Part shown: positions 186-58,452 of the stretch, piece after piece
Numbering within the stretch: position 1 is the first letter of the stretch
How the letters are laid out: each line of letters begins with the position of its first letter
The notes under the pieces: model-generated
Told to the model about the DNA's origin: nothing
The model's input: the letters and a program-made list of their open reading frames with translations, nothing else
The model's database searches: none
From: an uncultured Actinomycetes bacterium
GTDB taxonomy: Bacteria; Actinomycetota; Coriobacteriia; Anaerosomatales; CAMTYE01
Length of the DNA: 64,000 nucleotides
Direction: 5' to 3'
Assembly: GCA_947085935.1 (NCBI GenBank)
Contig: CAMTYE010000009.1
Span: 5,153 to 69,152 of the forward strand
Position numbers and translations under genes: made by a program

Positions 186-893
186 ATGAGCCAATGGGGC
201 CTGATCGCGGTGTTCATCATATACGGGGGATCGTTCCTCGTCATGGCTTGGGTGCTCTGGCAGCACATCCGGCGCACCGCCGGCGTGGGCGTGACCTCAC
301 GTCTCAACTTCCTTGCGCTGTTCGCGCTGACGCATGGCCTGTCGGATCTCATGGACGCGGCGTTGCGGTTCCCCGGCGTTGACCCGGACCCGTCAGGGCC
401 CGCAGCCGTCATCCGGCTCACGCTGCTGGTGGTCTCCTTCCTCTTCCTTCTCCTCTTCGGGCTGGTTGTCACTGTGGACGACGTGGGCCTGCAGAGGGTG
501 ATCATCGGGTTCGGGACGCTTGCCGTCGCGGGGATGGTGGCCGGTCTTGCGGCGCTGTTCCTGGCGGATTCGACTGCAGATTCGTTCGCCGCGACGGAGA
601 AGGCGACGCGGCTACTCGTTGGGCTGCCGGGGGCCGCGCTCTCCGCGGTGGCCCTGGTCAGAATCAGCCGGATCTGTTCCCGGCTCGGTCTTCACCACTG
701 CGCGACCGGTGCGAGGGTGGCCGCGTTCGGCATGGCGGCCTACGGAATCCTCGCGGGTGGTGTCGCCACCGGATACCCGCAGGCCGTGATGGTCCTCGGA
801 CTTCCCATCCAGCTGCATCGCATGGCAGCCGCCGTCGTGTTGACCGTAGGCTGCGTGTGGATGCTCCAGAAGCTGGAGTATGACCGGGAGTAG
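186..893 (+). CDS. Polytopic integral membrane protein, function unknown
   Basis: 235-aa ORF with about 6-7 hydrophobic segments (LIAVFIIYGGSFLVMAWVLW, LNFLALFALTHGL, IRLTLLVVSFLFLLLFGLVV and others). GC-rich third codon positions. GGTAGGA lies just upstream of the ATG. The overlapping ORFs in other frames are Arg/Pro-rich junk. Confidence 0.7.
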   Translation: MSQWGLIAVFIIYGGSFLVMAWVLWQHIRRTAGVGVTSRLNFLALFALTHGLSDLMDAALRFPGVDPDPSGPAAVIRLTLLVVSFLFLLLFGLVVTVDDVGLQRVIIGFGTLAVAGMVAGLAALFLADSTADSFAATEKATRLLVGLPGAALSAVALVRISRICSRLGLHHCATGARVAAFGMAAYGILAGGVATGYPQAVMVLGLPIQLHRMAAAVVLTVGCVWMLQKLEYDRE

Positions 894-940: not shown

Positions 941-1987
941 CTACGTGCGGCCCATTCGGCGGCGGCCGGCTGCGAGCGACAGCAGCACGAGCGACACGAC
1001 CGACAGGCCGGCAAGCTCGGCCATGGCCAGGCCCCGGATGGTGCCGATCTCCCGGGCCAGCGCAGAAACCTCATGACGAACGAGGACGACGCCAATGAAG
1101 CGTTGGTCGGCGTCGTGCAGGGGGAACGTGCCTACCGTGAACAGGCGCCCCTCGGAGTGCACCGGCGGGAGGGCGACCGGCCCGTCCTTCATCGATCGGG
1201 ACAATGCGGGCATATCGTCCAGATCCACAGCCGGGGATGTGGCGTATGTGAGAACGAGGTCAGGATGCCGGCTCTCGTCCGGCTGGTCTCCGGGCACGTC
1301 CGCTGTGCCGGGAGGTACGACGCCGGCGAGGAGCTCCCGGTCGAGGGCGAGCCCGTAGTCGTCGCCCAGCGAGATCTTCATGGAGTCGAGGAGGTGTTCG
1401 ACGCCCTGGCCGACCTCGATGTACCCGAGCAGGTCGCCCTCAGCACCGTAGAAGGGATGCACGACCCGCAACGCGAACTCGTCGACGCCGAACTCCTTGC
1501 CGGAGGCGAAGTACTTCGTTCTGACCGCCGCGCGGTGTGTCGAGCGCGTCACGGAATCGCCGAACTTCTCGGGGGCGTGAACGCGCAGGAAGACCGTTGA
1601 TTCGGGCTCGGGAAGACTGAAGTACATTCGTGTGACGCCGAATCTCTTGGTGAGACGTTCGAAGTCCGCACGAACCGCGTCGTGAAGCCCCTGCCTGTCC
1701 CGGCGCGCGAAGCTGTCCCGGAGGTCATCTCGCGCCATGAGGCTATCGAGGACGGCTTCGAGGCGCAGGGGCTCTCGGCGCTCCAGGTCCGCATATGATC
1801 TCATCGCGTCTGATACGACCTGCGTGCCGATGTGGTCGATCACGGTTGTCTCGGTTCGCCGGGCGAGCGTGATGAGAATCGCTCCGACCAAAACGCCAAC
1901 GACCAGCAGCGTGAGGTATCCCGTTATGCCCGGCCATCGCGGGCCGGCCGGGGTGTCTGCCTCGCTATGGGCCGTCCGCTCATCCAC
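941..1987 (-). CDS. Membrane-anchored extracytoplasmic sensor-like protein (double Cache-type domain) without output domain
   Basis: N-terminal TM (ITGYLTLLVVGVLVGAILITL) and C-terminal TM (LAMAELAGLSVVSLVLLSLAA). The protein stops 8 residues after the second TM. The central region has the pattern I associate with Cache_3-Cache_2 sensor domains (RMYFSLPE..TVFLRVHAPEKFGD...GKEFG...ALRVVHPFY...GDLLGYIEVGQGVEH). Confidence 0.7.
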   Translation of the reverse strand: MDERTAHSEADTPAGPRWPGITGYLTLLVVGVLVGAILITLARRTETTVIDHIGTQVVSDAMRSYADLERREPLRLEAVLDSLMARDDLRDSFARRDRQGLHDAVRADFERLTKRFGVTRMYFSLPEPESTVFLRVHAPEKFGDSVTRSTHRAAVRTKYFASGKEFGVDEFALRVVHPFYGAEGDLLGYIEVGQGVEHLLDSMKISLGDDYGLALDRELLAGVVPPGTADVPGDQPDESRHPDLVLTYATSPAVDLDDMPALSRSMKDGPVALPPVHSEGRLFTVGTFPLHDADQRFIGVVLVRHEVSALAREIGTIRGLAMAELAGLSVVSLVLLSLAAGRRRMGRT

Positions 1988-2030
1988 GGCACTCCCGCAT
2001 CTCAGTCCGGTGTGTCTGCAGTCGACGCGC

Positions 2031-2501
2031 CTACCGCGCTATCGCGACCGCCACGAGTCTCAGGTTGTCAACGTCGCCCATTGCGGCAGTGGTCTGAACA
2101 TCGAACGGTTCGATGTCACCAGGGCTCAGGGACTCCGCAACGACGAATCCGACGACGCGGCGAGCTCCCTCATCCGAGTCCTCCTTGCCGGTCTCGGCGC
2201 GAATCTCGAACTTGACCGCTTTGAATTCGTCGGCCCCCAGATTCGCGGCCTGGCCAAAGACCCTGGCGAGACCCGTGTCGGACGCGTAGACGTTCTGGAC
2301 CTCTCCCACGAGGACCTCTGCGTAGTCCATCTGCTCCTTACTGGAGAGGTCCTTGAAGGAGTAGCCTTTCGCCGCGTCGCCCGTGTCAGCCTTGCTCGTG
2401 GCCAGCTCTACCCGGGGATTGACACATCCGGTGCCGAGCATGGCGGTGGAGATCAGCCCAACGATGACGAGGGTTATAGGGAATCTGCCAACGAAGCGCA
2501 T
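2031..2501 (-). CDS. Lipoprotein, function unknown
   Basis: I chose the internal ATG at 2501, preceded by GGAGGA, rather than the ORF-track start at 2699. Signal peptide with lipobox (MRFVGRFPITLVIVGLISTAMLGTGC). Same strand as the Cache-like gene and immediately upstream of it. Confidence 0.7.
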   Translation of the reverse strand: MRFVGRFPITLVIVGLISTAMLGTGCVNPRVELATSKADTGDAAKGYSFKDLSSKEQMDYAEVLVGEVQNVYASDTGLARVFGQAANLGADEFKAVKFEIRAETGKEDSDEGARRVVGFVVAESLSPGDIEPFDVQTTAAMGDVDNLRLVAVAIAR

Positions 2502-2620
2502 GTGGTCCTCCGTGATTAGTCTGATTCGGTGGTTGAGGCGAAGTGCACCCTTGTCGGATAGTACAGTTTGGACTAAACTAAAGCAAGATGAAGCAATAGA
2601 CGTTAAGGCGAGGACTCGGT

Positions 2621-3232
2621 ATGATGCGACTTCGTCAAGCGGAAGGACCTGGCGTGACCCGATGTGCAGGTGTTGCTCGGCTTCTGGTGCTTCTGGCACT
2701 CATGGTATCGCTACTCGCCCTCTCCGGCTGCGGTCAGGCGTCGACGAGCGTCAACCTACTGGATGATCTGGACTCGGCGAGCTCGGAAGAGCTCGTTGAG
2801 ATATCCGTGTTCTTCCCGTCTTCAGACACGATTATCGAGGAGAAGCGGTCGGTGGAGCCCGACGAGGCCACGCCTCTCACGGCACTGAAGATCATGTTCG
2901 AGGAGGAGCCCGAAGACACGAGCCACACCAAGACGCTTCCCGAGGCCAAGGTGCTCTCTGCGTCGATCGATGACGGGACCGCCCGGATCGACTTCGACCG
3001 CGGCGTCCTGGTCTCAGGTTCGGATCCCGGGACCCAGCGCGTGGCCCTTGTTGCCATCATCTATGCGATGAAGCAGTTCCCCGGTGTCGAGCAGGTCGCC
3101 TTCTCGGTGGAGGGCAAGACGAGCGGCCAGATCGACGGCAAGGACATCGAGACCTTCTGGGGCGAGGTCAGCCTCAGTGATATGCCCTGGTCTGCAGCCG
3201 AGCCGGTGCAGACGACGGACGGAAAGGAATAG
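2621..3232 (+). CDS. GerMN-domain lipoprotein
   Basis: Lipobox (LLALSGCG). Mature part matches the GerMN pattern (ISVFFPSSD...TPLTALKIMFE...LPEAKVLSASIDDGTARIDF...ALVAIIYAMKQFPGVEQVAFSVEGK). Confidence 0.75.
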   Translation: MMRLRQAEGPGVTRCAGVARLLVLLALMVSLLALSGCGQASTSVNLLDDLDSASSEELVEISVFFPSSDTIIEEKRSVEPDEATPLTALKIMFEEEPEDTSHTKTLPEAKVLSASIDDGTARIDFDRGVLVSGSDPGTQRVALVAIIYAMKQFPGVEQVAFSVEGKTSGQIDGKDIETFWGEVSLSDMPWSAAEPVQTTDGKE

Positions 3233-3234
3233 CA

Positions 3235-3969
3235 TTGGGCACGTTGGGATACTCCAGCAAGCCGCGATTCGGACCCGGTCGAGGCAAGATGCTCTTCGGA
3301 CTGGTTCTGGCCGCGCTGATCGTCATCACGGCTCTGAACTCCGTGCGGATCGTCACCGGACTCCGCGCGGACGTTGCGGGTCGGGGAGCCCGCTCCACCG
3401 AGGAGCGGTACCTGCAGGATGCTCTCGCCGCTGTGAAGCAGGACCCGAACAGCCTGCAGGCGCGCTGGCAGCTCAGCATCGCGCTCTCCACGGTGGGCGA
3501 GTACTCCAGGGCTCAGGCCGAGGCCGAGCAGGCCGTCAAGCTCGACGAGGAATCAGTCGAGGCGTTCTATGCTCTGGGCGTGGCCTATCGGGGACTGCGC
3601 GACAACGTGCGGGCCGAGAAGGCGCTCGCGAAGTCGGCCGGCTTTCCCGGCTCGCATAGCGAGATCTACCGCGAGGTCTACTACGAGCTTGGCGAGGTTC
3701 GCTCGGAACTCGGCGACGCGCAAGGCGCGGTCACTGCGTTCCAGGGTGCTCTTGGCAACGGTCCCGAAGCCACGTACATCGTCGTGAGGCTCGCCCAGGC
3801 GTACCTCGATGTCGGGGAGACCGAGCGCGCGAAAGAGGAGTTCCTTGCGGTTCTCGGCTACGACCCCGAAAACGAGATCGCCGAGACGGCGTTGCTCGAG
3901 ATGGGTGTAGGGCGCGATGAGATCGACGCCGCGCGCGACCCGATAGCTCACCAAGACGATAACTCGTAG
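3235..3969 (+). CDS. Membrane-anchored TPR-repeat protein
   Basis: TTG start 6 nt after GGAAAGGA. N-terminal TM (MLFGLVLAALIVITAL). At least three TPR-like helical repeats (WQLSIALSTVGEYSRAQAEAEQAVKLDEESVEAFYALGVAYRGLRD...). Confidence 0.75.
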   Translation: MGTLGYSSKPRFGPGRGKMLFGLVLAALIVITALNSVRIVTGLRADVAGRGARSTEERYLQDALAAVKQDPNSLQARWQLSIALSTVGEYSRAQAEAEQAVKLDEESVEAFYALGVAYRGLRDNVRAEKALAKSAGFPGSHSEIYREVYYELGEVRSELGDAQGAVTAFQGALGNGPEATYIVVRLAQAYLDVGETERAKEEFLAVLGYDPENEIAETALLEMGVGRDEIDAARDPIAHQDDNS

Positions 3970-3973
3970 GAGG

Positions 3974-5431
3974 ATGATCGGTGTGACCCGTACCGCCAGC
4001 TCACTCCGCAGGCCGAGGATGGGAATCGTGCTGCTTCTCGGCGCGCTCGCCCTTCTCGCGGCGGGTTCCTGGTATGCCGCTTCACTTCTGAACGACCCCC
4101 TCGTTGCGTCCGGGGGCGGTGCCAAGACCGAGGGCTACTCGCACCTGAGCTCGCTGTACGGCAAGGGTCCGGACCGGCTCAACAGGCCTACTGAGGTCAC
4201 GGTCGACGCGAAGGGCAACATCTACGTCGCCGACTCGTTCAAGCACCGCATCGTCGTTTTCGATTCAAGCGGTGTCTTCGTGAGGACCATAGGAAGCCCG
4301 GCGAACGTCGACGGGGCACTCAAGTTCCCGTCGTCCGTGCGTGTTGATGATCGCGGACGGGTCTACGTCACGTCCTCCGAGCCCGGAAAGGTCGTCATCT
4401 TCGGGGCGGACGGAAGTGTCATCCGCTCGGTCGATGTGCCGGAGCCTCTAACCCTTGCGATAGCCGACGATCGGCTGTATGTGGCGACCGCGAGCGGGAT
4501 ACTCATCGGCGACCTGGATGGCAATCAGATCGGGCAGCTGTCAGAGCGCGGCAAAGAGCCGGGCATGATAGACCGGCCTACCGGCATCGCCGTGGATGAC
4601 GACGGTACGATCTACATCGCGGACTCGCTGAACTACCGGTTCCAGGCCATCGACGCCAAGGGCGAGGTCAAGTGGAGCACCGGCGCCGGCCCCGACCCCG
4701 CGAAAGCGGTTGTCGATCGCGACCGTACGTACGGTCTGCCCTCGAGCATCACGATCGGGTCGGATGACCTGCTGTATGCCATCGACGCGTTCAACGGGAT
4801 GATCGTCGTCCTGAACAAGGACGGAGAGCATCTTGCCGAGTATGGCCAGTGGGGGCGCCAGGACGGCCAGTTCTACTACCCCACGGGAATCGCCCAGGTG
4901 AGCCCCGAGCGATTCGTGATAGCTGACACCTTCAACGACCGGCTGCAGTTCGTGGGCGTGCCGAGTCTCAATCCCGGCGTAGGGACCCTCGCCAACAGGA
5001 GCTGGCCGTGGGCAGTGCCTGCACTGCTTCTGCTCGGGCTGCTTGTTCTCGCTCGCCGCCCGGCCGCGGTTGTCGCCGAGGCCGAGGGTCTGCGGGTCGC
5101 GCATGAACGCGAGCTGTTGGAGGACCTGATCCGCGAATCCAAGACGATATTCGTTCCGGCGGGTACGGCTGAGGCCATCGCGGATCTGCTGGACTCCCAC
5201 GACGGGCTTGCCGAATCGCTCCGTGAAGTCGATCTGGGTGATCTCGCGGACGGAGTCAGGCCCGGTCTCGAGCTGGCACTCCGGCTGAAGGGCCGGTTCG
5301 CGATTCGACGCGTCGCCCTCGCGTTTCCCGACGGGGAGCTGGCGGAGCTGGCACGTGACAGCGGTCTGGGCGTTCTCGATGACGGCACTCCCGTTGCGGC
5401 AGTGGGCGTGGCGGGAAGCGGTCTCTCCTAG
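3974..5431 (+). CDS. NHL-repeat beta-propeller protein with two TM segments and a cytoplasmic C-terminal domain
   Basis: AGGAGG RBS. N-terminal TM (GIVLLLGALALLAAGSWY). Repeated NHL signatures (GNIYVADSFKHRIVVFDSSG, GRVYVTSSEPGKVVIF, GTIYIADSLNYRFQAID, LLYAIDAFNGMIVVLN, RFVIADTFNDRLQFV). Second TM (WPWAVPALLLLGLLVLA) followed by about 125 aa of unassigned sequence. Confidence 0.85.
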   Translation: MIGVTRTASSLRRPRMGIVLLLGALALLAAGSWYAASLLNDPLVASGGGAKTEGYSHLSSLYGKGPDRLNRPTEVTVDAKGNIYVADSFKHRIVVFDSSGVFVRTIGSPANVDGALKFPSSVRVDDRGRVYVTSSEPGKVVIFGADGSVIRSVDVPEPLTLAIADDRLYVATASGILIGDLDGNQIGQLSERGKEPGMIDRPTGIAVDDDGTIYIADSLNYRFQAIDAKGEVKWSTGAGPDPAKAVVDRDRTYGLPSSITIGSDDLLYAIDAFNGMIVVLNKDGEHLAEYGQWGRQDGQFYYPTGIAQVSPERFVIADTFNDRLQFVGVPSLNPGVGTLANRSWPWAVPALLLLGLLVLARRPAAVVAEAEGLRVAHERELLEDLIRESKTIFVPAGTAEAIADLLDSHDGLAESLREVDLGDLADGVRPGLELALRLKGRFAIRRVALAFPDGELAELARDSGLGVLDDGTPVAAVGVAGSGLS

Positions 5432-5470: not shown

Positions 5471-5487
5471 TAGTCCCAACGGGACTA
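5471..5487 (+). terminator. Short hairpin between the NHL gene and the cytochrome gene (weak terminator or attenuator candidate)
   Basis: TAGTCCC-AAC-GGGACTA, a 7-bp stem with a 3-nt loop, 40 nt after the NHL stop codon. The loop is very small and there is no clear U-tract. Confidence 0.25.
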
Positions 5488-5583
5488 ATGCGATTTCGCC
5501 TCACATGGGCGGGAAATCAGTGCAGGAAGGGAGGTGGTGTGTGAATGCACACAACGACACAACACACAGGGAAGGGAAGTACA

Positions 5584-7320
5584 ATGAAGAGAGTGTTTGT
5601 TCTCGCTGCGATGGCCATGGTGCTGATCGCGGCAACTGCCGGCGCCGCTTTCGCCGCAGATCCGACGTCTACCGTCAATCCTACCGTTCCGTTCACGTTC
5701 ACTGAGGCCAATCCTGAGAATGCCAGCATCCCCACGACTGTTTCCGGGACCGGCATCGCCAACGGATTCGGCGCCTCGGCATGGACGTACAAGGACGCCG
5801 CCGACTCCGCCGCGAAGACCGAGGGCTCGTACAACGCCTTCGACGATCAGACCGGCGACGGCACGTACACGACCAATCCGCACGGCGGCTACAGCACGAC
5901 GTCGAACAAGTGCAAGACCTGCCATGCAGTCCACCGCGCCAACGGCGCCTTCGCCCTCATGCGCGTGGATAACCCCGACGATGCGTGCAACTACTGCCAC
6001 ATCGGTTCGCACCGTCACGCCACCAGCGAGGCCTACTTCGGTGGCAGCAACGGCATCTACTCGAGCAACGGTCACACGATCGGCTCCAGCAAGTCGATTC
6101 CTGACAGCTCGGTGTGGCAGTGGACCGAGACCGTAGCGCTCACGTCTGCCGACGGCAGCGCCAACGTCCCGATTCGCCGTTACATGAGCGCGAAGAACAA
6201 GATCATGCGCTACATCGTGCACGGCAACCGTTGGATCCGCGTTGGCCCGTACAACCTGCGTTGCGCAAGCTGCCACCAGGTCCACAACGCCACGCAGCAG
6301 ATCTGGAAGCCTGTCTCGTCCGGCTACCTGCCCGGCGGTGGTGTTGCCGGCACGAAGCTGACCAACGGCTACAAGCTGCTCCGCAACAGCCCCTCCGGCG
6401 GTATCCAGGTCCGCGGCACCGACATCAACGCCGACGGCACGCTCAACGCGAGCCCCGCAGCCCTGTCGCGTGCGTACAGCCGTCTGAACCACACGTACTA
6501 CGATCCGGGCGTTACGGGTGCTCTTGACGGACTCGCTTCGAACTCCGTTGACTACCGTATCAAGGCACTCGAGACCACGATCACGCTGGCGACGGGTGAT
6601 GATGCTGTCACCGGCCTCCCGGTCCAGGGTGCGAACATCACCGGCTACACGCCGTTCAAGTACTTCGCCCCGACCAACACCGCTAGCCAGGCCCCGGCCA
6701 CTGCACCCGTCAACGAGGCCTCGCTCTCGTGGTGGTGCGCTGACTGCCACAACCTGAACATCGCAGGCAAGTCGCTGGCCCCCGGCTTCGGTGGCGGTCG
6801 CTCCGGCGACACGATGCTCGGCGACCGCTCGCACGCGGTTCCGAACCAGTTCCGCATCAATGCTTCCGGTGAGATCGCTTCGGCGGGCGCGCACTGCACC
6901 CAGTGCCACAACAACGACATGCCGCTCGACGGTGCCGCGATGTTCACTGGCGCTGACTGCGGCGCATGTCACGTGACGACCCAGATGTATCACTACTACA
7001 AGAACGACCTCGCGGTCGGCGGTTCGACGTGGGCGGCTCGCAATGACGCTCGCGCCAAGAACGCTCCCGTCGCGGCTCGTTCCGACTTCCCGCACTCCGG
7101 TCCGGACTGGGGCAAGAAGCTCCTGAACGCCCGCGACCGTCGTCTCCAGACCAGCGCCAGCTCGAACAACACAGCGATCAACCCGACGCTGTACACCCTT
7201 GGTGGCGCCAACTACGACACCCAGGGTTCTGCGTTCGATGCCAGCACCGATGGTCAGGACAAGATCTGTGCCATCTGCCACGGTGGCGCGAAGTTCCGCG
7301 CGATCGGGTACGACAAGTAG
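5584..7320 (+). CDS. Secreted heptahaem c-type cytochrome
   Basis: I chose the ATG at 5584 (GGGAAGGGAAG upstream), giving the signal peptide MKRVFVLAAMAMVLIAATAGAAFAADP. Seven CxxCH motifs: CKTCH 5911-5925, CNYCH 5986-6000, CASCH 6262-6276, CADCH 6736-6750, CTQCH 6895-6909, CGACH 6958-6972, CAICH 7267-7281. Composition is rich in Gly, Ser, Thr and Asn. Confidence 0.9.
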   Translation: MKRVFVLAAMAMVLIAATAGAAFAADPTSTVNPTVPFTFTEANPENASIPTTVSGTGIANGFGASAWTYKDAADSAAKTEGSYNAFDDQTGDGTYTTNPHGGYSTTSNKCKTCHAVHRANGAFALMRVDNPDDACNYCHIGSHRHATSEAYFGGSNGIYSSNGHTIGSSKSIPDSSVWQWTETVALTSADGSANVPIRRYMSAKNKIMRYIVHGNRWIRVGPYNLRCASCHQVHNATQQIWKPVSSGYLPGGGVAGTKLTNGYKLLRNSPSGGIQVRGTDINADGTLNASPAALSRAYSRLNHTYYDPGVTGALDGLASNSVDYRIKALETTITLATGDDAVTGLPVQGANITGYTPFKYFAPTNTASQAPATAPVNEASLSWWCADCHNLNIAGKSLAPGFGGGRSGDTMLGDRSHAVPNQFRINASGEIASAGAHCTQCHNNDMPLDGAAMFTGADCGACHVTTQMYHYYKNDLAVGGSTWAARNDARAKNAPVAARSDFPHSGPDWGKKLLNARDRRLQTSASSNNTAINPTLYTLGGANYDTQGSAFDASTDGQDKICAICHGGAKFRAIGYDK

Positions 7321-7354
7321 CGTTTCGAAGAAGAGAGCCTTCTTCAGTACGAGG

Positions 7355-7380
7355 ACAGGGGACCCGCGAGGGTCCCCTGT
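7355..7380 (+). terminator. Intrinsic-terminator-like hairpin after the cytochrome gene
   Basis: ACAGGGGACCC-GCGA-GGGTCCCCTGT, a perfect 11-bp GC-rich stem with a GCGA loop, 35 nt after the stop codon. The downstream tract is only weakly T-rich. Confidence 0.55.
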
Positions 7381-7484
7381 CTGCGTTCTCGGCAATCGGG
7401 CGCCGTTGCTGCCCGCGAGCCAGACCCTTCGGCCCCGCACGACCCCCCTCCGGGCATGTCCGATGACCGTTCATCGCGCGGTCA

Positions 7485-7514
7485 TTGACGCACCACATAT
7501 GGGGTGCCTAGACT
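7485..7514 (+). promoter_or_regulatory. Candidate nrdJ promoter (-35 TTGACG, 18-bp spacer, -10 TAGACT)
   Basis: TTGACG at 7485-7490 and TAGACT at 7509-7514, about 105 nt upstream of the nrdJ ATG. Hexamers read directly from the sequence. No experimental TSS. Confidence 0.35.
7491..7506. promoter_or_regulatory. Operator-like palindrome 1 in the nrdJ promoter (CACCACATATGGGGTG)
   Basis: Near-perfect 16-bp palindrome lying within the promoter spacer. Shares the core ACATATGG with box 2. Centre-to-centre distance to box 2 is 31 bp. Confidence 0.45.
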
Positions 7515-7521
7515 CGTCTAT

Positions 7522-7537
7522 CGCTACATATGGTGGA
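7522..7537. promoter_or_regulatory. Operator-like box 2 in the nrdJ promoter (CGCTACATATGGTGGA)
   Basis: Second copy of ACATATGG, just downstream of the putative -10. The tandem arrangement resembles NrdR-box pairs, but the match to the published NrdR consensus as I recall it is poor. Confidence 0.4.
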
Positions 7538-7618
7538 GGGGCGGTCGCGGGCCTGAGGGCCCGCTTTGGCCGTATGAACGGAACAGAAGACTGGCTCGTG
7601 GCTAGAGAGGGGCGCACC

Positions 7619-9898
7619 ATGCCCGATGCGGCACGCAAGACCGGGTACTCCCGGGCGATAGATGAACTGCTGACACCGAACTCCCTCAAGGTCTTGCAGA
7701 GACGCTACCTGCTCAAGAACGAAGACGGCACGCCGTGTGAGTCGGCGAGTGACATGTTCGTGCGGGTCGCCGAGAACATCGCGAGCGCCGAGCTGGCGTT
7801 CGGCGGCGATGAGGCGTCGGTCTGTGAGGCTGCAGCGGACTTCTACGACCTCATGACATCGCTGGAGTTCCTCCCGAACTCGCCGACGCTCATGAACGCC
7901 GGCCGCGAGTTGCAGCAGCTCTCGGCATGCTTCGTCTTGCCGGTCGAGGACTCGATGGAGTCGATCTTTGGCGCGGTGCGGGATACGGCGCTCATTCACA
8001 AGTCAGGCGGAGGCACCGGCTTCTCGTTCTCGCGCCTGCGTCCCGGCGGCGATCAAGTGCGTTCGACACAAGGGGTATCGAGCGGACCGGTCTCATTCAT
8101 GCGCGTGTTCAACCAGGCGACCGAAGCGGTGAAGCAGGGCGGGACACGTCGTGGTGCGAACATGGGTGTCCTGCGCATCGATCACCCTGATATCCTCCAG
8201 TTCATCAAGTGCAAAGAGGACGGGGACTTCGCGAACTTCAACATAAGCGTCGCTCTCACCGAGAGGTTCATGGATGCCGTCAGGGCTGGCACCCACTACG
8301 AGCTGCTCAATCCGCGATCCAAGGAGATGGCGGGCACGCTTGACGCACGCGAGGTCTACGATCTGATCGTCGAGATGGCGTGGGCTACCGGCGACCCGGG
8401 CATCATCTTCATCGACCGCATGAACAGGGACAACCCGACTCCGGCACTGGGGGAGATCGAGTCCACCAACCCCTGCGGCGAGCAGCCCTTGCTGCCGTAC
8501 GAAGCGTGCAACCTGGGCAGTGTGAACCTCTCGAAGTTCGTCACGATGCGAGAGGGTGGGGCGGACGTCGATTGGGATCGTCTCGGGGACGTGGTCGGCA
8601 GAGCCGTACGTTTCCTCGACAACGTCATCGAGGTCAACGAGTACCCGCTCGCCCAGATTGGCGAGCTGGCCCGCGGCAACCGCAAGATCGGACTGGGCGT
8701 CATGGGTTGGGCCGACATGCTCATCAAGATGGACGTGGCCTACGATTCCAAAGAGGCCGTGGCCCTCGGCGAGAAGGTCATGGGATTCATCCAGGCCGAA
8801 GCCAAGTCCGCGTCCCGCAAGCTCGCTGCCGAACGCGGCGACTTCGCCAACTGGTCGGGTTCGGTCTACGACAGCCCTGACGGCGGGCCGATGCGCAATG
8901 CCACCGTGACGACCATCGCACCGACGGGCACGTTGTCGATCATTGCGAACTGCTCGAGCGGGGTCGAGCCGCTGTTCGCCGTGAGCTACGTGCGAACCGT
9001 CATGGACAACGACCGGCTCATCGAGGTGAACCCGGTCTTCGAGGAGATCGCCGTCAAGCGCGGCTTCTACTCCTCTGAGCTCATGGCGCTCATCGCCGAT
9101 CACGGCTCCGTGCACGGGATCGATGATGTCCCTGAAGACATACGACGCATCTTCGTGACGGCGCACGACATAGCACCGGAGTGGCACATCAAGATGCAGG
9201 CTGCGTTCCAGCGTCACACGGACAACGCCGTGTCCAAGACCGTGAACTTCGCCACCGAGGCGACCGTAGCCGACGTCCGACACGTCTACGATCTCGCCAA
9301 CGAACTCGGGGTCAAGGGTGTCACGATCTATCGCGACGGCTCCAAAGAGGGACAGGTGCTAACGACGGGCAAGAGCGGAGCGTCCACTGAGGTCGTTCAG
9401 ACCGGCAAGCATGGTGAGATCGAGCCTCGTCCCCGGCCGATGGTCACGCAGGGCCGCACCGAGAAGATACAGACCGGATGCGGCAACCTCTACGTCACCG
9501 TGAACTGGGACGAGCAGGGCATGTGCGAGGTCTTCACGCAGATGGGAAAGTCAGGCGGATGTGCCTCCTCGCAGTCAGAGGCGCTCTCCCGCATGATCTC
9601 GGTCTCTCTGCGCGCCGGCGTCGATCCGGAAGCGATTCTCAAGCACCTGCGGGGCATCCGCTGCCCCAGCCCCTCGTGGACTGAAGGCGGCAAGGTCCTT
9701 TCCTGCGCGGATGCAGTCGGCATTGTGATGGAGCATGCGCTCACGTATATGGAGACCGGGGAGGCTGGGAAGGGAGTCACCAAGATGGGCGAGAAGCTCG
9801 ATTACCTTTCGGGAGCGTGCCCGGAATGCGGCGGCTCGCTGGAGCACGAGAGCGGGTGTGCCGTCTGCCGCGCGTGCGGCTTCAGCAAGTGCTCGTAG
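7619..9898 (+). CDS. nrdJ: Adenosylcobalamin-dependent (class II) ribonucleotide reductase
   Basis: I chose the ATG at 7619 (GAGAGGGG RBS). The ORF-track start at 7199 overlaps the cytochrome gene. RNR signatures LPNSPTLMNAG, SACFVLPV, GGGTGFSFSRLRP and STNPCGEQPL. C-terminal Cys-rich Zn-ribbon CPECGGSLEHESGCAVCRACG. Confidence 0.9.
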   Translation: MPDAARKTGYSRAIDELLTPNSLKVLQRRYLLKNEDGTPCESASDMFVRVAENIASAELAFGGDEASVCEAAADFYDLMTSLEFLPNSPTLMNAGRELQQLSACFVLPVEDSMESIFGAVRDTALIHKSGGGTGFSFSRLRPGGDQVRSTQGVSSGPVSFMRVFNQATEAVKQGGTRRGANMGVLRIDHPDILQFIKCKEDGDFANFNISVALTERFMDAVRAGTHYELLNPRSKEMAGTLDAREVYDLIVEMAWATGDPGIIFIDRMNRDNPTPALGEIESTNPCGEQPLLPYEACNLGSVNLSKFVTMREGGADVDWDRLGDVVGRAVRFLDNVIEVNEYPLAQIGELARGNRKIGLGVMGWADMLIKMDVAYDSKEAVALGEKVMGFIQAEAKSASRKLAAERGDFANWSGSVYDSPDGGPMRNATVTTIAPTGTLSIIANCSSGVEPLFAVSYVRTVMDNDRLIEVNPVFEEIAVKRGFYSSELMALIADHGSVHGIDDVPEDIRRIFVTAHDIAPEWHIKMQAAFQRHTDNAVSKTVNFATEATVADVRHVYDLANELGVKGVTIYRDGSKEGQVLTTGKSGASTEVVQTGKHGEIEPRPRPMVTQGRTEKIQTGCGNLYVTVNWDEQGMCEVFTQMGKSGGCASSQSEALSRMISVSLRAGVDPEAILKHLRGIRCPSPSWTEGGKVLSCADAVGIVMEHALTYMETGEAGKGVTKMGEKLDYLSGACPECGGSLEHESGCAVCRACGFSKCS

Positions 9899-38099: not shown

Positions 38100-41000
38100 A
38101 TGACCGATATGGAATCCAGCGCCACGAAGACCCGGGTCCCGCGGTGGTCTCTCGCGCCCGTCGACGACGTTCAGGCCGCTGCTCTTGCCTCGGCCACAGG
38201 GCTTTCGCTTGTCGTCGCCCGGATCCTGTGCTCGAGGGGCGTATGTGACGAGCACGAGGCGACGCGCTTTCTGAGACCCGAGCTTGATCTCGAGTGGTCG
38301 AACCCCTCGCTGATACCGGGAATGGACGAGGCCGCCGCGCGGGTCGCTCAGGCGGTGCGTGACCACGAGCGGATACTCGTGTTCGGCGACTTCGATCTCG
38401 ACGGGATATCCTCAGCGGCGCTCGCTACCAGGGGTCTGAGGGCTCTGGGAGCCGATGTCTCGGCGATCGTGCCGAACCGGTTCGGCGAGGGATACGGCCT
38501 CAGCGACGCCGCGATTCGGCGCGCCCTCACGCTCCGACCACAGCTGCTGATCACCGTCGACTGCGGTGTCTCGAGTGCGGTCGAGGTCGAAGCGCTGCGA
38601 GCCGCCGGCGTCGATGTCGTCGTCACCGATCATCACGAGCCGGGCTCGCTCGTTCCGCGTGGGGTGCCGGTTGCGAACCCGAAGCTGGATGAAGGATGCG
38701 GATCGTGCGATCTCGCCGGCGCGGGCGTGGCGCTCAAGTTGATGCACGCTGTGGGCGACCGGGTCGGGCAGCCGGAGCTGTGGCGCGACCTCGTCGACCT
38801 GGCCATGCTCGGGACCGTCGCCGATATCGTTCCGTTGCGCGGCCAGAACCGTGCCCTTGTGGCAGCAGGCCTCGCGAGATCGCGTTCCAGCCCCCGTATC
38901 GGAATCGCGGCGCTTGCGTCGGTGGCCGGATCCGATATCGGCCAGATGAACTCGGACACCGTCGCGTTCGCGCTGGCACCCCGTCTCAATGCGGCGGGCC
39001 GTATGGCGGATCCCGCCGTCGCACTCGAGCTGCTGCTTACCGATGATCCGGGCCGTGCCGAGGAGTTGGCGCTCGGGCTGGATGAACAGAATCGCATTCG
39101 CCAGTCCGTCGAGCAGGACCTGAGCGAGGCGGCACTCGCTCTTGCGGAGCGAACCTACCGTCCGGGTGAACGCGCGCTCGTGCTCGCGGGCGAGGGCTGG
39201 CACGCAGGGGTCAAGGGCATCGTCGCCTCAAGGCTCACCGCGCTCTATGGCGTTCCGGCGGTGTTGTTCGCCATCGAAGACGGTGAAGCCGTCGGGTCGG
39301 GGCGGTCGGTCGGCGACGTCGATCTGCACGCGGCGGTAAGCGCGCTCTCGGACATGCTCACGCGTTACGGGGGACACGAAGCCGCTGTCGGAGTCACGCT
39401 TCCCGCTTCAGACGTGAACCTGTTCCGGACGCGCCTGCTCGATGAGCTCGATCGACTGCCCGCCGAGGCGTTCGTGTCTCGTCGCATGTGTGACGCGGAG
39501 ATCGAGCTGGAACATGTGAGCGTCGAGTTGGCGGCCGAACTCTCTGCGCTCGAGCCGTTCGGGCACGAGAACCCGCGGCCCCTGCTCTGCTCGCGCGCGG
39601 TCTTCATGAACGCCCGGCAGCGCGTCGGCAGAACCGCGAACCACCTGCGCTTCACCGCGTATGACGGCGTCGCGACCGTGCCGGCGATCGCGTTTCGTTG
39701 TCGGGACATCGAGCGCTTGGCCGAGTGCGATGCGGCGGTCGATCTCGCGTATGAGATCGTGGCCGACGAATGGCGCGGTCGTCGGAGGGTCCAGCTGCAG
39801 GTGCGCGAGTTCGACGAACGGGTCTCTTCGGCGCCGTATGCCCCGGCAGCCGAGCTGGTCGAGGATCTCTTCGCCCACGCCGATGAGATCCTGGCGCGCG
39901 AGGAGTACACCGGAATAGGCGAGGCGGAGTCGTTTCACACCAAACTCGCAGGTGTCACGTTCGAAGGCCGCCAGGAGGTGGTCGCCGCACTGACTCCGGG
40001 GCTTCCGCTGCGGCTCGACCGACAGCCGGAGAACCCTCATGACGCGAACGCGATCGCGCTCTTCGACCCGTATGGCCACCAGGTCGGCTTCTTCAACCGG
40101 CGTCTCGCCGCCGTGCTCGCCCCGGTTCTTGATTCCGGCGTGGAATACGACGTCGAGGTCGCCGATGTCACCGGTGGTGACGCGGGCAGGTCGCTCGGGT
40201 TGAACGTGCGGGTCGCGCGGCGGTCGGATACCGACGAGGAGTTGGTCGAGGAGTCACGCGCGCAGCGAAGGAGCGAACTGGCGGAGCTCCCCGCAGGGGA
40301 GCTTGGTGTGCAGCTCGCCACGTCGTTCATCGGCGATCGGCAGCTTCATGACGCACAGGTCCGCGCGTTGGAGGCGTTGGCCGCGGGGCGTCGCACGATG
40401 TGTGTCATGGCGACCGGGCGCGGCAAGTCGCTCATCTTTCACCTGCACGCGGCCCGGACAGCCATCCGGAGCAGGAAGGCCTCGGTGTTCGTGTTTCCGC
40501 TCCGGGCACTCGTGGCCGACCAGGCGTTCCATCTTGAGGAGGTGTACGCGGGAATCGGTCTGAACGCGTGCACCTTGACGGGCGAATCCGCGCCGACCCG
40601 GCGGGATGATGTGTTCGGGGCCCTGTCCGATGGCTCCCTGGATGTCGTGCTGACGACTCCCGAGTTCTTCGAGCATCATGCCGGCCGTTTTGCAGCCACC
40701 GGCCGCGTCGGCTTCGTCGTGGTGGACGAGGCGCATCATGTTGGAACCGCCCGCTCCGGTCACAGGCCGGCATACAGCCGGCTCGGGTCCGCGATCGACA
40801 TGCTGGGCTCACCCGACGTGCTGGCGGTCTCGGCGACCGTCGATCGGGACGTCGGCGAGGTGATACGCGGCACGCTCGGGATCACCGAGGTCATCGAGGA
40901 TCCGACAGTTCGAGAGAACCTCATCATCGAGGATCGCCGGGGGGTCTCGGGCAAGGACGACATCCTCTGCGCGCTCGCAGCGCGAGATGAGAAGGTGGTC

Positions 41001-41750
41001 GTCTATGTGAACTCGCGAGAGCAGTCGGTTCAGCTTGCGCGGATGCTCCGCAAACGGGTGCCCGCAGTTGCGCTCAGGACGGCCTTCTACAACGGCGGTC
41101 TCGGCAAGGCGGCTCGTCACGCGGTCGAGCGTGCGTTCCGAGTGGGGGATATCACCGTCATCATCGCGACCAGCGCGTTTGGCGAGGGAGTCAACATACC
41201 CGACATCCGCCACGTCGTCCTCTACCACCTTCCCTTCAACGACATCGAGTTCAACCAGATGAGCGGGCGCGCCGGACGCGATGGCGCGCCGTCCAGGATC
41301 CACCTTCTGTTCGGTCCGCGAGACGGGCGTGTCAACGAGATGGTGCTCGCCGCCGCTGCCCCTTCCCGCGACGACATGGCGGCCGTCTACGCGGTCCTCG
41401 CCAAAGAGCAGGCTGCGACCGACGGAGCCTTTGAGCTCACCAATGCCGAGATCGCCGATCGCGCGAGAACGGCTCGCAAGGGGTGTAGCGTCAATGAGCG
41501 CGGCGTGTCCACCGCTATCTCGGTCTTCCGGGAGCTCGACCTCGTGCACGGAGAAGGCTATGGTGCCTTCCGCAGGTTGACGGTCGCTGCCAGACCACAG
41601 GTCAAGGTCGAGCTGTCGGACTCGGTTCGATATGCCGAGGGCATCCTCGAGAAAGCGGAATTCGACGAGTTCCGCGAATGGGTCCTGTCTGCGACATCAG
41701 ACGAGTTGCTGGCGCGCTTCAATCGACCTATCCTTCCATCAACGCCCTGA
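38100..41750 (+). CDS. recJ: Single-ORF fusion of RecJ ssDNA exonuclease, a HIRAN domain and a RecQ-like SF2 helicase
   Basis: The N-terminal part of about 600 aa has DHH/DHHA1 motifs (ILVFGDFDLDGISS, ITVDCG, VVVTDHHEP, GGHEAAVG). HIRAN is at about 39933-40215 (KLAGVTFEGRQ...RLDRQPENPHDANAIALFDPYGHQVGFF). The helicase is at about 40340-41300 (MATGRGKSLIF, VVVDEAHHV, VSATV, QMSGRAGRDG). The frame is continuous with no stop. Confidence 0.9.
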   Translation: MTDMESSATKTRVPRWSLAPVDDVQAAALASATGLSLVVARILCSRGVCDEHEATRFLRPELDLEWSNPSLIPGMDEAAARVAQAVRDHERILVFGDFDLDGISSAALATRGLRALGADVSAIVPNRFGEGYGLSDAAIRRALTLRPQLLITVDCGVSSAVEVEALRAAGVDVVVTDHHEPGSLVPRGVPVANPKLDEGCGSCDLAGAGVALKLMHAVGDRVGQPELWRDLVDLAMLGTVADIVPLRGQNRALVAAGLARSRSSPRIGIAALASVAGSDIGQMNSDTVAFALAPRLNAAGRMADPAVALELLLTDDPGRAEELALGLDEQNRIRQSVEQDLSEAALALAERTYRPGERALVLAGEGWHAGVKGIVASRLTALYGVPAVLFAIEDGEAVGSGRSVGDVDLHAAVSALSDMLTRYGGHEAAVGVTLPASDVNLFRTRLLDELDRLPAEAFVSRRMCDAEIELEHVSVELAAELSALEPFGHENPRPLLCSRAVFMNARQRVGRTANHLRFTAYDGVATVPAIAFRCRDIERLAECDAAVDLAYEIVADEWRGRRRVQLQVREFDERVSSAPYAPAAELVEDLFAHADEILAREEYTGIGEAESFHTKLAGVTFEGRQEVVAALTPGLPLRLDRQPENPHDANAIALFDPYGHQVGFFNRRLAAVLAPVLDSGVEYDVEVADVTGGDAGRSLGLNVRVARRSDTDEELVEESRAQRRSELAELPAGELGVQLATSFIGDRQLHDAQVRALEALAAGRRTMCVMATGRGKSLIFHLHAARTAIRSRKASVFVFPLRALVADQAFHLEEVYAGIGLNACTLTGESAPTRRDDVFGALSDGSLDVVLTTPEFFEHHAGRFAATGRVGFVVVDEAHHVGTARSGHRPAYSRLGSAIDMLGSPDVLAVSATVDRDVGEVIRGTLGITEVIEDPTVRENLIIEDRRGVSGKDDILCALAARDEKVVVYVNSREQSVQLARMLRKRVPAVALRTAFYNGGLGKAARHAVERAFRVGDITVIIATSAFGEGVNIPDIRHVVLYHLPFNDIEFNQMSGRAGRDGAPSRIHLLFGPRDGRVNEMVLAAAAPSRDDMAAVYAVLAKEQAATDGAFELTNAEIADRARTARKGCSVNERGVSTAISVFRELDLVHGEGYGAFRRLTVAARPQVKVELSDSVRYAEGILEKAEFDEFREWVLSATSDELLARFNRPILPSTP

Positions 41751-57537: not shown

Positions 57538-58452
57538 GTGATCGGAGTGCGAGTGGGCTTGCGAATCAACGGACGCACGCGACTTGCCGGTATCATCGGC
57601 AATCCAATCACACATACCCTGTCTCCCGCGATGCACAACGCCGCCTATGAGGCGCTCGGATTGGACTGGGTCTACGTTCCGTTGCCACTTGAGGACGAGA
57701 CGGATCTCATGCGCTTCATGGGTGCCGCCCGCGTGCTTCCGTTCGTGGGCTTCAACGTGACCATGCCGTTCAAGCAGGCCATGCTCACGATGTGCGATGA
57801 AGTGGCCATGCTGGCCACCATGGCCGGGGCTGTGAACACCGTGCACTGCGTCGACGGCAGGTTCATCGGCTACAACACGGATGCGCGTGGCCTCGTCGAG
57901 GCGCTTCAGGCCGAGGTGGGGTTCAGCTCGGAGGGACGCGACATCGTCATCATCGGCGCCGGTGGCGCTGCCGGTGCCGCTGCGGTCGGCTTCATGCTCG
58001 GCCGCGCGAACCGAATCACGATCGCCAATCGTAGTCTCGAGCGGGCCGAGGAGCTCTACGGGCGCCTTGCCCCGCATGTACGCACGACCGAAGTCGCAGT
58101 CGTGTCGCTCTCAGACGCAGAGGAGGCGATCTCCTCGGCGGCCGCTGTTATCAACGCGACACCGGTCGGCATGACGCCATCGGAGCCGTCGCCCGTACCC
58201 ACCGCATGGCTCAGGCCCGGTCAGGTCGTATGCGACATGCTCTACGGCCCGCACCGGACTCAGCTGCTCGTCGATGCTGAATCCGCGGGGGCGACCGCCG
58301 TCAGCGGCCTTGGAATGCTCGTTGCCCAGGGTGCGCTTGCGGTCGACATCTGGAGCGAGTCCGCGCAGACCCGCGCGCCCCGCGATGTGATGCACGCTGC
58401 GGCGGTGGATGCTCTGCGAGGCGTCCAGGCAGGGGAGGCTGCGCCGGCGTGA
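57538..58452 (+). CDS. aroE: Shikimate dehydrogenase
   Basis: GIIGNPITHTLSPAMHNAA, NVTMPFK, NTD.RG and IIGAGGAAGA. Confidence 0.9.
   Translation: MIGVRVGLRINGRTRLAGIIGNPITHTLSPAMHNAAYEALGLDWVYVPLPLEDETDLMRFMGAARVLPFVGFNVTMPFKQAMLTMCDEVAMLATMAGAVNTVHCVDGRFIGYNTDARGLVEALQAEVGFSSEGRDIVIIGAGGAAGAAAVGFMLGRANRITIANRSLERAEELYGRLAPHVRTTEVAVVSLSDAEEAISSAAAVINATPVGMTPSEPSPVPTAWLRPGQVVCDMLYGPHRTQLLVDAESAGATAVSGLGMLVAQGALAVDIWSESAQTRAPRDVMHAAAVDALRGVQAGEAAPA

Follow-up and report, generated by a model that had tools for sequence, protein, structure and literature searches.

A secreted heptahaem cytochrome with remote similarity to OmcS, and its conserved gene neighbours, in an uncultured monoderm actinobacterium

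How electrons could cross the thick wall of a Gram-positive cell is a question that, to our knowledge, rests on a single homology model, that of CwcA, and the cytochrome nanowire structures solved so far that we know of come from two archaea and from the Geobacter group (Geobacter and relatives) alone. The 64-kb stretch of contig CAMTYE010000009.1 analyzed here (64,000 nucleotides; hereafter the window) raises this question for its host, an uncultured monoderm actinobacterium related to Coriobacteriia. An uninterrupted open reading frame (ORF) at 5584-7320 of the plus strand encodes, by its translation, a secreted heptahaem c-type cytochrome of 578 amino acids (aa), and is the sole ORF in the window with more than one CxxCH motif. 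The first-pass annotation of this DNA had regarded the product as a candidate surface conduit or filament rather than a compact c3/c7-type shuttle, a proposal upheld here by remote homology to OmcS and by an NHL gene located upstream, as at omcS. We consider it highly probable that the protein is an exported, all-bis-His member of the OmcS superfamily that makes up the portion outside the cytoplasm of a module for extracellular electron transfer, and neither an enzyme nor a c3/c7 shuttle.

The cytochrome, its relatives and OmcS

An exhaustive profile search of 1.84 billion representatives recovered 709 relatives of the window protein, 84 of them with E <= 1e-30; this search was needed, as a word-indexed profile search did not widen the family. 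Nearly all of the homologues come from metagenome-assembled genomes (MAGs) labelled Actinomycetota, Coriobacteriia or Ca. Aquicultor, with a few labelled otherwise, including Anaerolineae/Chloroflexi and 'Eubacteriales', and their habitats are groundwater, deep mines, mud volcanoes and sediments. The relatives fall into three size classes. Compact hexahaem proteins of 260-310 aa with six CxxCH motifs, from Actinobacteria MAGs, keep haem sites 1, 2, 3, 4, 6 and 7 together with His100, 117, 164, 234, 417 and 504 (window numbering throughout), and lack site 5 (C438), an N-terminal extension of about 75 residues, the inserts at 176-222 and at about 240-380, and smaller inserts. Expanded heptahaem proteins of 455-650 aa include the window protein. 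In giant fusions of 800-1270 aa the module is preceded or followed by further strings of CxxCH motifs, up to 35 in total, and by Ig-like/PPC-like repeats. Because the compact relatives carry six of the haem sites without the inserts, the haem-free stretches are true insertions into a compact haem core, and the long inserts described in the first-pass annotation are genuine.

Comparisons with known proteins were made with three profiles, built from the window subfamily (A1), from a combined set that includes the window protein (A2) and from the compact relatives (A3), the window protein alone having given no match in a phmmer search of the sequences in the Protein Data Bank (PDB). The best match of A3 in the PDB was OmcS, the hexahaem nanowire cytochrome of Geobacter sulfurreducens (GSU2504, PDB 6EF8/6NEF), with 6ef8_A at E 4.7e-10 and 42.5 bits over four stretches, the first three of them collinear; the next multihaem proteins (NrfA, MtrA and OmcE) scored 27-28 bits. 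The OmcS sequence used in what follows is identical to 6ef8_A at 407 of 407 positions. Profile-profile comparison by hhalign against a 30-sequence alignment of the OmcS family gave a probability of 98.6% for A3 (E 7.6e-16, 92 columns, haems 1-3) and of 97.7% for A1 (E 2e-12, haems 1-2), and aligned window residues 108-142 directly to OmcS 7-54. As a control, OmcS was shuffled 2000 times with its CxxCH motifs held fixed and all other residues permuted. The shuffles scored 10.4 ± 6.2 bits against A3 and 11.9 ± 6.4 bits against a profile containing the window protein, to which real OmcS scored 50.1 bits, and in neither comparison did any of the 2000 score as high as the real sequence. All 120 retrieved OmcS-family proteins scored 25.5-57.4 bits with A2, and 98 unrelated ORFs with 5 to 13 haems from the same actinobacterial loci scored 21 bits or less. 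Judged by these scores, the similarity to the OmcS family exceeds what the CxxCH motifs alone can give.

The correspondence is residue for residue through haems 1-4 and His117, His164 and His234. OmcS C9xxCH13 aligns with C110xxCH114 of the window protein, H16 with H117 (by hhalign), C47..H51 with C135..H139, H110 (KGHNIV) with H164 (NGHTIG), C140..H144 and H147 with C227..H231 and H234, and SEWC239ANCH243 with SWWC385ADCH389. His100, His417, His504 and the last two haems correspond by order only, among them OmcS C400-H404 and haem site 7 (C562-H566). The conserved non-motif His of the OmcS family, at positions 2, 16, 110, 147, 257 and 335, show the same interleaving as H100, H117, H164, H234, H417 and H504. 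The two proteins have in common CxxCHxxH at haems 1 and 3, a distal His in GH(T/N)I, S(E/W)WCA(N/D)CH at haem 4, a succession of distal His that matches by alignment at three positions and by order alone at the other three, a last haem near the C-terminus, low haem density and scarce regular secondary structure, and their loci have in common an NHL propeller gene directly upstream and, in related loci, tandem paralogues. Unlike OmcS, the window protein has a seventh haem (C438), the N-terminal extension of about 75 aa and about 280 aa of inserts, its similarity is remote and detectable mainly through the compact intermediates, and its C-terminal half does not align; its host is monoderm, and its partners are anchored by transmembrane (TM) helices or as lipoproteins (GerMN, TPR) instead of being outer-membrane components.

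One of these correspondences concerns the contact between subunits. An OmcS subunit supplies 11 of its 12 axial His itself, and the remaining one, on haem 5, belongs to a neighbour (PMC6584659), and the contribution of one of 12 by a neighbouring molecule is also described elsewhere (PMC9473688). In the window family, His117 is invariant in both alignments made (43 and 18 sequences). The inter-subunit ligand of OmcS is reportedly His16 in the work of Wang et al. of 2019. If so, the alignment would make His117 the counterpart of the residue that joins OmcS subunits.

Retranslation of 5584-7320 (+) gave all seven of the CxxCH motifs reported by the first-pass annotation, which was also right that the first two are paired, that the fourth to sixth are clustered and that the last lies close to the C-terminus. 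A Sec-type signal peptide (aa 1-24, 5584-5655 (+)) was read by eye as MKRVFVLAAMAMVLIAATAGAAFA followed by AD, with cleavage between AFA and AD, and a helix is predicted at residues 2-21; the mature protein would have about 554 aa. No lipobox, LPXTG sortase signal or C-terminal anchor was found in the sequence. According to the alignments, the N-terminal extension that follows (aa 25-98, 5656-5877) is absent from the compact relatives; it holds the conserved motif GASxWxYxD...KxEGSY and is modelled with low confidence. Haem site 1 (CKTCH, C110-H114) is flanked by His100 in PHGGY and by His117 in CxxCHxxH (together 5881-5934), both invariant, and is separated by 20 residues (H114 to C135) from site 2 (CNYCH, C135-H139), which is followed by the near-invariant His145 and by His164 in NGHTIG (5986-6075). 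Insert 1 (aa 176-222, 6109-6249), a gap in the compact relatives, is predicted to be a four-stranded beta-hairpin unit, with DSSP strands between 179 and 220 and a predicted local distance difference test score (pLDDT) of 86-90. Site 3 (CASCH, C227-H231) again has the form CxxCHxxH, with His234 (6262-6285), and precedes insert 2 (aa 240-380, 6301-6723), a long, haem-free and mostly coiled segment that is largely absent from the compact relatives and for which the model reaches its highest confidence (pLDDT 88-96). The spacer of about 150 aa noted earlier between sites 3 and 4 has that length (153 residues from H231 to C385), but not the enrichment in Gly, Thr, Asn and Ser attributed to it, these residues making up 36.6% of it versus 35.2% of the rest of the mature protein. 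Sites 4 to 6 span 6736-6972: site 4 (CADCH, C385-H389, in SWWCADCH) with His417 (6736-6834), site 5 (CTQCH, C438-H442, 6895-6909), which is the extra haem of the heptahaem subfamily and is absent from the hexahaem relatives and OmcS, and site 6 (CGACH, C459-H463) with His504 in FPHSG (6958-7095), invariant in the alignment with the compact relatives. Site 7 (CAICH, C562-H566, 7267-7281) ends 12 residues before the C-terminus, and it is from here that C-terminal fusions extend the haem string.

All 14 cysteines of the protein lie inside the CxxCH motifs, and all seven sites are kept in 42 of 43 aligned homologues, site 6 being missing in one; the pattern is therefore not due to chance. In the same 43 sequences His100, His117, His164, His234, His417 and His504 are invariant and His145 nearly so, and no CxxCK, CxxxCH or CxxxxCH was found in the cytochrome. 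With seven sixth-ligand candidates for seven haems and no unusual motif, the haems would be low-spin bis-His electron-transfer haems with no catalytic haem among them. The Pfam and NCBIfam matches were to no enzyme family and were limited to generic domains of the haem motif, Paired_CXXCH at 107-139 and c7/c3 at 430-472.

The size of the protein also separates it from the compact cytochromes. Cytochromes c3/c7 have about 70-130 aa and 3-4 haems, that is, about 25-30 aa per haem, whereas the window protein has 554 mature residues for its seven haems and matches Cytochrome_C7/c3_2 only in the two-haem stretch 430-472. Its haem density, 79 aa per haem versus 68 in OmcS, is indeed low, as the first-pass annotation had pointed out, and close to that of OmcS, but does not serve as the diagnostic argument made of it: monomeric proteins of the MtrC type have a similar density. 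MtrC and OmcA contain ten haems in a staggered cross and two beta-barrel domains; the window protein had no Pfam match to the MtrC/MtrF family, and its PDB match to MtrC, of 22 bits, is at the level of the motif.

The AlphaFold2 model computed from the 43-sequence alignment is of moderate confidence (pLDDT 77.5, predicted template modelling score 0.77), and little of it is regular secondary structure. Its best modelled parts are the inserts, which are poorly conserved (pLDDT about 90), and the most conserved segment, aa 101-140 with haems 1 and 2 (5884-6003, 74-86% column identity), has the lowest confidence (pLDDT 48-63, and below 50 at 116-127). Low confidence around His117 would be expected if its partner lay in another chain, to which the model points weakly. 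The model of one compact relative reached a pLDDT of only 43.6.

Horizontal transfer of the cytochrome gene was considered and dismissed: the GC content at third codon positions (GC3) is 0.82, comparable to that of adjacent genes, and a GC3-based gene caller had chosen part of an antisense ORF instead. The full antisense ORF, of 651 aa (5485-7440 (-)), spans the entire cytochrome gene and is a high-GC artefact.

The GerMN-TPR-NHL cassette

Three genes precede the cytochrome gene on the same strand and encode a GerMN-domain lipoprotein with the lipobox LSGC (2621-3232 (+), Pfam Germane 2.5e-12), a TPR protein with an N-terminal membrane anchor (3235-3969 (+), Pfam TPR), the two also being supported by synteny, and a beta-propeller protein of NHL repeats (3974-5431 (+), Pfam NHL 2.6e-22), which is anchored at its N-terminus, crosses the membrane again with a second TM helix and ends in a cytoplasmic tail of some 120 aa. 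The propeller is of the six-bladed type. The cassette adjoins family members in 25 of 48 genome loci, and on metagenome contigs as well, with the order variant TPR-NHL-GerMN-cytochrome; it ranges over MAGs of Coriobacteriia, Aquicultor and other Actinomycetota. Genes for compact hexahaem proteins are likewise preceded by TPR and NHL genes, and tandem paralogues of the cytochrome occur in the loci of relatives. The first-pass annotation had assigned the cytochrome gene a hairpin and leader of its own, separate from the NHL gene. Neither part of this held: the 152-nucleotide intergenic region folds no better than shuffled sequences (z = -0.30) and has no terminator-like or promoter-like site, and the cytochrome and NHL genes are conserved neighbours. 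The cytoplasmic tail of the NHL protein (about aa 345-485) has no family match and is retained only in closer relatives (L002, L004, L037 and L006).

The Geobacter omcS locus (L056) has the same-strand arrangement as the window, with a 315-aa NHL protein encoded directly upstream of omcS. The two NHL proteins align over 290 residues with 23% identity (E 7e-5 in a small search). A paralogue follows omcS, and a TPR-containing glycosyltransferase, a dCache sensor kinase and another propeller are encoded nearby. The NHL protein adjoining omcS, GSU2505, has been described as one that the assembly or expression of OmcS may require (PMC9070056).

A candidate source of electrons recurs in the loci of relatives, where a membrane-anchored pair of NapC/NirT-like cytochromes with 12 and 13 haems adjoins the cassette (L005, L006, L011, L012, L025 and L037). 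L002 shares the gene order of the window, and there this pair (2014-4030) is found about 1.6 kb upstream of the gene homologous to the window ORF at 186-893, from which it follows that in the present genome the pair probably lies just past the left edge of the window.

Parts of this arrangement have precedents. OmcS-like cytochromes, the proposed Gram-positive counterpart CwcA and cytochrome clusters associated with NHL and TPR proteins are already known. CwcA of Thermincola (TherJR_1122 / Tfer_0075) is an unanchored, OmcS-related hexahaem protein in the cell wall of a Gram-positive bacterium, and stacking of its subunits through the peptidoglycan layer has been proposed (PMC7911101). Its description would suit the compact relatives; CwcA differs from the window protein in coming from Firmicutes and in having six haems, and its polymer is a homology model only. 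The cluster names of the sister subfamilies contain only Actinomycetes and Coriobacteriia MAGs and give no link to CwcA or to SmhC of Firmicutes. Multihaem genes clustered with NHL and TPR genes, whose products are thought to organize the complex, have been reported in Dethiobacter alkaliphilus, Desulfovibrio ferrophilus and Ca. Tenderia (PMC10376724, PMC5815863, bioRxiv 10.1101/2022.05.06.490989). In those clusters the cytochromes belong to other sequence families, and what sets the actinobacterial cassette apart is its GerMN lipoprotein and its fixed order of four genes. OmcE, the archaeal tetrahaem filaments and OmcZ are likewise extracellular bis-His haem wires. OmcE resembles the family at the level of the haem motif only (27 bits), and its clusters also hold beta-propeller lipoproteins (bioRxiv 10.1101/2025.10.22.684050). 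OmcZ was absent from the PDB matches of the family profiles, and the cytochrome locus contains no gene for an OzpA-like protease or a large beta-barrel. OmcZ itself is an octahaem protein processed by an adjacent protease of the OzpA type. A literature search found no description of the actinobacterial family, of its hexahaem, heptahaem and fused series, or of the GerMN-TPR-NHL cassette.

Further genes recur around the cassette. The ORF at 186-893 (+) encodes a polytopic membrane protein without family match, whose homologues adjoin the cassette in L002, L018 and L026, and the gene at 941-1987 (-) encodes a protein with a dCache_3 sensor domain, two TM helices and no kinase domain, which has a homologue in L015. 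The pair may be a dedicated sensor for the cytochrome module. Large membrane proteins with Wzy_C (O-antigen-ligase / O-oligosaccharyltransferase-like) and TPR domains recur near family members (L051 15620-17581; L052 1-666 and 3149-5185; L054 1-1343), and at the omcS locus (L056 287-1921) a PMT_2 glycosyltransferase is fused to TPR. The Ser/Thr/Asn-rich cytochromes of the family may be glycosylated.

Possible roles: filament subunit or wall-bound relay

The sequence features, homology and synteny presented above are what has been shown, and they lead us to propose the following route, in which the location of the protein, what its partners do, which way electrons flow and polymerization are inferred. 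Membrane-anchored cytochromes of the NapC/NirT type, with 12 and 13 haems, would oxidize quinol and hand electrons to the unanchored heptahaem cytochrome, which would conduct them across the cell wall, where minerals, humics or partner cells would receive them. The outward-facing, membrane-anchored GerMN lipoprotein, TPR protein and NHL propeller would probably position or assemble the cytochrome. Subunits would stack head to tail, His117 of the CxxCHxxH at haem 1 ligating a haem of the neighbouring subunit and the C-terminal haem 7 abutting haem 1 of the next one. As a whole, this account of an exported OmcS-type wire with NapC/NirT-type input, GerMN/TPR/NHL assembly and head-to-tail stacking has in our judgement a slightly better than even chance of being correct. 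Stacking as in OmcS, taken alone, is favoured because His117 is conserved, haem 7 is C-terminal, there is no anchor and fusions continue the haem chain at either end; we give it somewhat less than an even chance. Both ends of the core module can be continued by further haems: N-terminal fusions (P0064, P0082 and P0050) and C-terminal fusions (P0069, P0077, P0080, P0083 and P0084) contain 13-35 haem motifs. The N-terminal fusions have a CxxCH 15-35 residues before PHGGY, precisely the position at which a stand-alone subunit would need an outside haem for His117.

Several results weigh against an OmcS-type wire. Profile A1 alone gave OmcS 11.3 bits in HMMER, a score reached by 92 of the 2000 shuffles, and the link to OmcS therefore depends on the compact intermediates and on hhalign. 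The reverse search, with a narrow OmcS profile against the family, gave 23 bits or less and did not find the window protein. The C-terminal halves that do not align include the region of OmcS that accepts the His in trans. A Foldseek search of the monomer model against the PDB returned nothing with E < 1, a search that is uninformative for this fold class, and missed Foldseek matches are known for OmcS-type folds (PMC9473688). No quinol-oxidizing cytochrome is encoded inside the 64-kb window. NHL and TPR proteins are also found beside non-filament cytochromes (PMC5815863, PMC10376724, bioRxiv 10.1101/2022.05.06.490989), and the NHL partner is for this reason supportive and not specific. Lastly, the inserts are bulky, and the giant fusions with Ig-like repeats look like monomeric surface proteins.

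This last point leads to the main rival of the wire, a cytochrome of the wall or surface that acts as a monomer or small oligomer, docked on the NHL, TPR and GerMN proteins and serving as a terminal reductase or relay in the manner of OcwA or MtrC, with all of its distal His in cis. Seven conserved His suffice for seven haems in cis, the large and well-modelled inserts (pLDDT about 90) may serve docking or substrate contact, the fusions with Ig-like repeats and long haem strings resemble monomeric surface proteins, the C-terminal half has diverged from OmcS, and NHL propellers have been proposed to stabilize outer-surface cytochrome complexes that are not filaments (PMC5815863). A docked monomer accounts less well for a cytochrome without an anchor of its own, for haem modules added at both ends of the core, for tandem paralogues and an upstream NHL gene that mirror omcS-omcT, and for the alignment of His117 with OmcS His16, the residue that reportedly acts in trans. 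Overall we regard this rival as unlikely, though by a wide measure the most serious of the three considered here.

The signal peptide and the missing anchor would also suit a soluble shuttle that moves between membrane and wall, or is released to the medium and diffuses to external acceptors, and Gram-positive iron reducers do secrete multihaem cytochromes: Carboxydothermus ferrireducens has SmhA-C, of which the heptahaem SmhC is induced by Fe(III) (PMC7829351). Three conserved, membrane-anchored and outward-facing partners suggest assembly at a fixed site, and the homology to OmcS speaks against a free shuttle, which we consider improbable. A multihaem enzyme with a soluble substrate, comparable to NrfA, HAO or the octahaem reductases, is more improbable still. 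Large size and low haem density would agree with an enzyme, as would weak profile matches to NrfA structures (E 3e-3 to 9e-6), but these matches span one or two haem motifs at no more than 28 bits, matches to other enzyme structures are likewise confined to the haem motifs within that score, and the cassette contains no catalytic partner genes. An enzyme family with a CxxCK or catalytic haem had been named in the first-pass annotation as one outcome that would speak against a conduit; what was found is a conserved His candidate as sixth ligand of every haem, no CxxCK and no enzyme family match, and an enzyme identity was dismissed on these motif and ligand grounds.

If an OmcS-type wire is what the locus encodes, uncultured subsurface Actinomycetota would build nanowires from OmcS-derived subunits, in bare hexahaem, decorated heptahaem and giant fused forms, by means of a dedicated, membrane-anchored GerMN-TPR-NHL machine, and monoderm Actinobacteria would gain their first family of this kind; we put this broader proposal forward tentatively, with doubt outweighing confidence. 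Were it true, the NHL partner common to both loci could be read as the sign of an assembly factor, ancient and conserved, for filaments of the OmcS type in diderms and monoderms. The locus offers a candidate open to testing, in a phylum that abounds in deep aquifers, mud volcanoes and sediments, with His117 as a specific residue open to mutation. The series of minimal, decorated and fused proteins shows what the OmcS haem core tolerates, and the conserved accessory cassette, the shared NHL propeller especially, may reveal how such cytochromes are assembled. The family could also be used as a genomic marker of extracellular electron transfer in uncultured Actinomycetota.

Elsewhere in the window

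Immediately downstream of the cytochrome gene, the NrdJ ORF delimited mechanically at 7199-9898 (+) has a TTG start that overlaps the final 122 nucleotides of the cytochrome gene. Its family matches start at residue 157, and 7485-7514 resembles a promoter; the true start is probably about 300-450 nucleotides downstream, leaving an intergenic gap after the cytochrome gene. No Rfam or tRNA features were found in the 64-kb window. Its remaining genes are housekeeping genes, such as ruvABC, queuosine genes, secDF, relA and genes for tRNA synthetases. A gene at 38100-41750 (+) encodes a 1216-aa fusion of RecJ (DHH, DHHA1 and OB) with HIRAN and DEAD/Helicase_C domains, an unusual combination in one polypeptide. 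Toward the right-hand end of the window, at a distance of 51 kb from the cytochrome gene, a PilB-like T2SSE ATPase with an MshEN domain (58449-60119 (+)) and a 665-aa DUF4388 protein (60928-62925 (+)) mark the start of a type IV filament locus.

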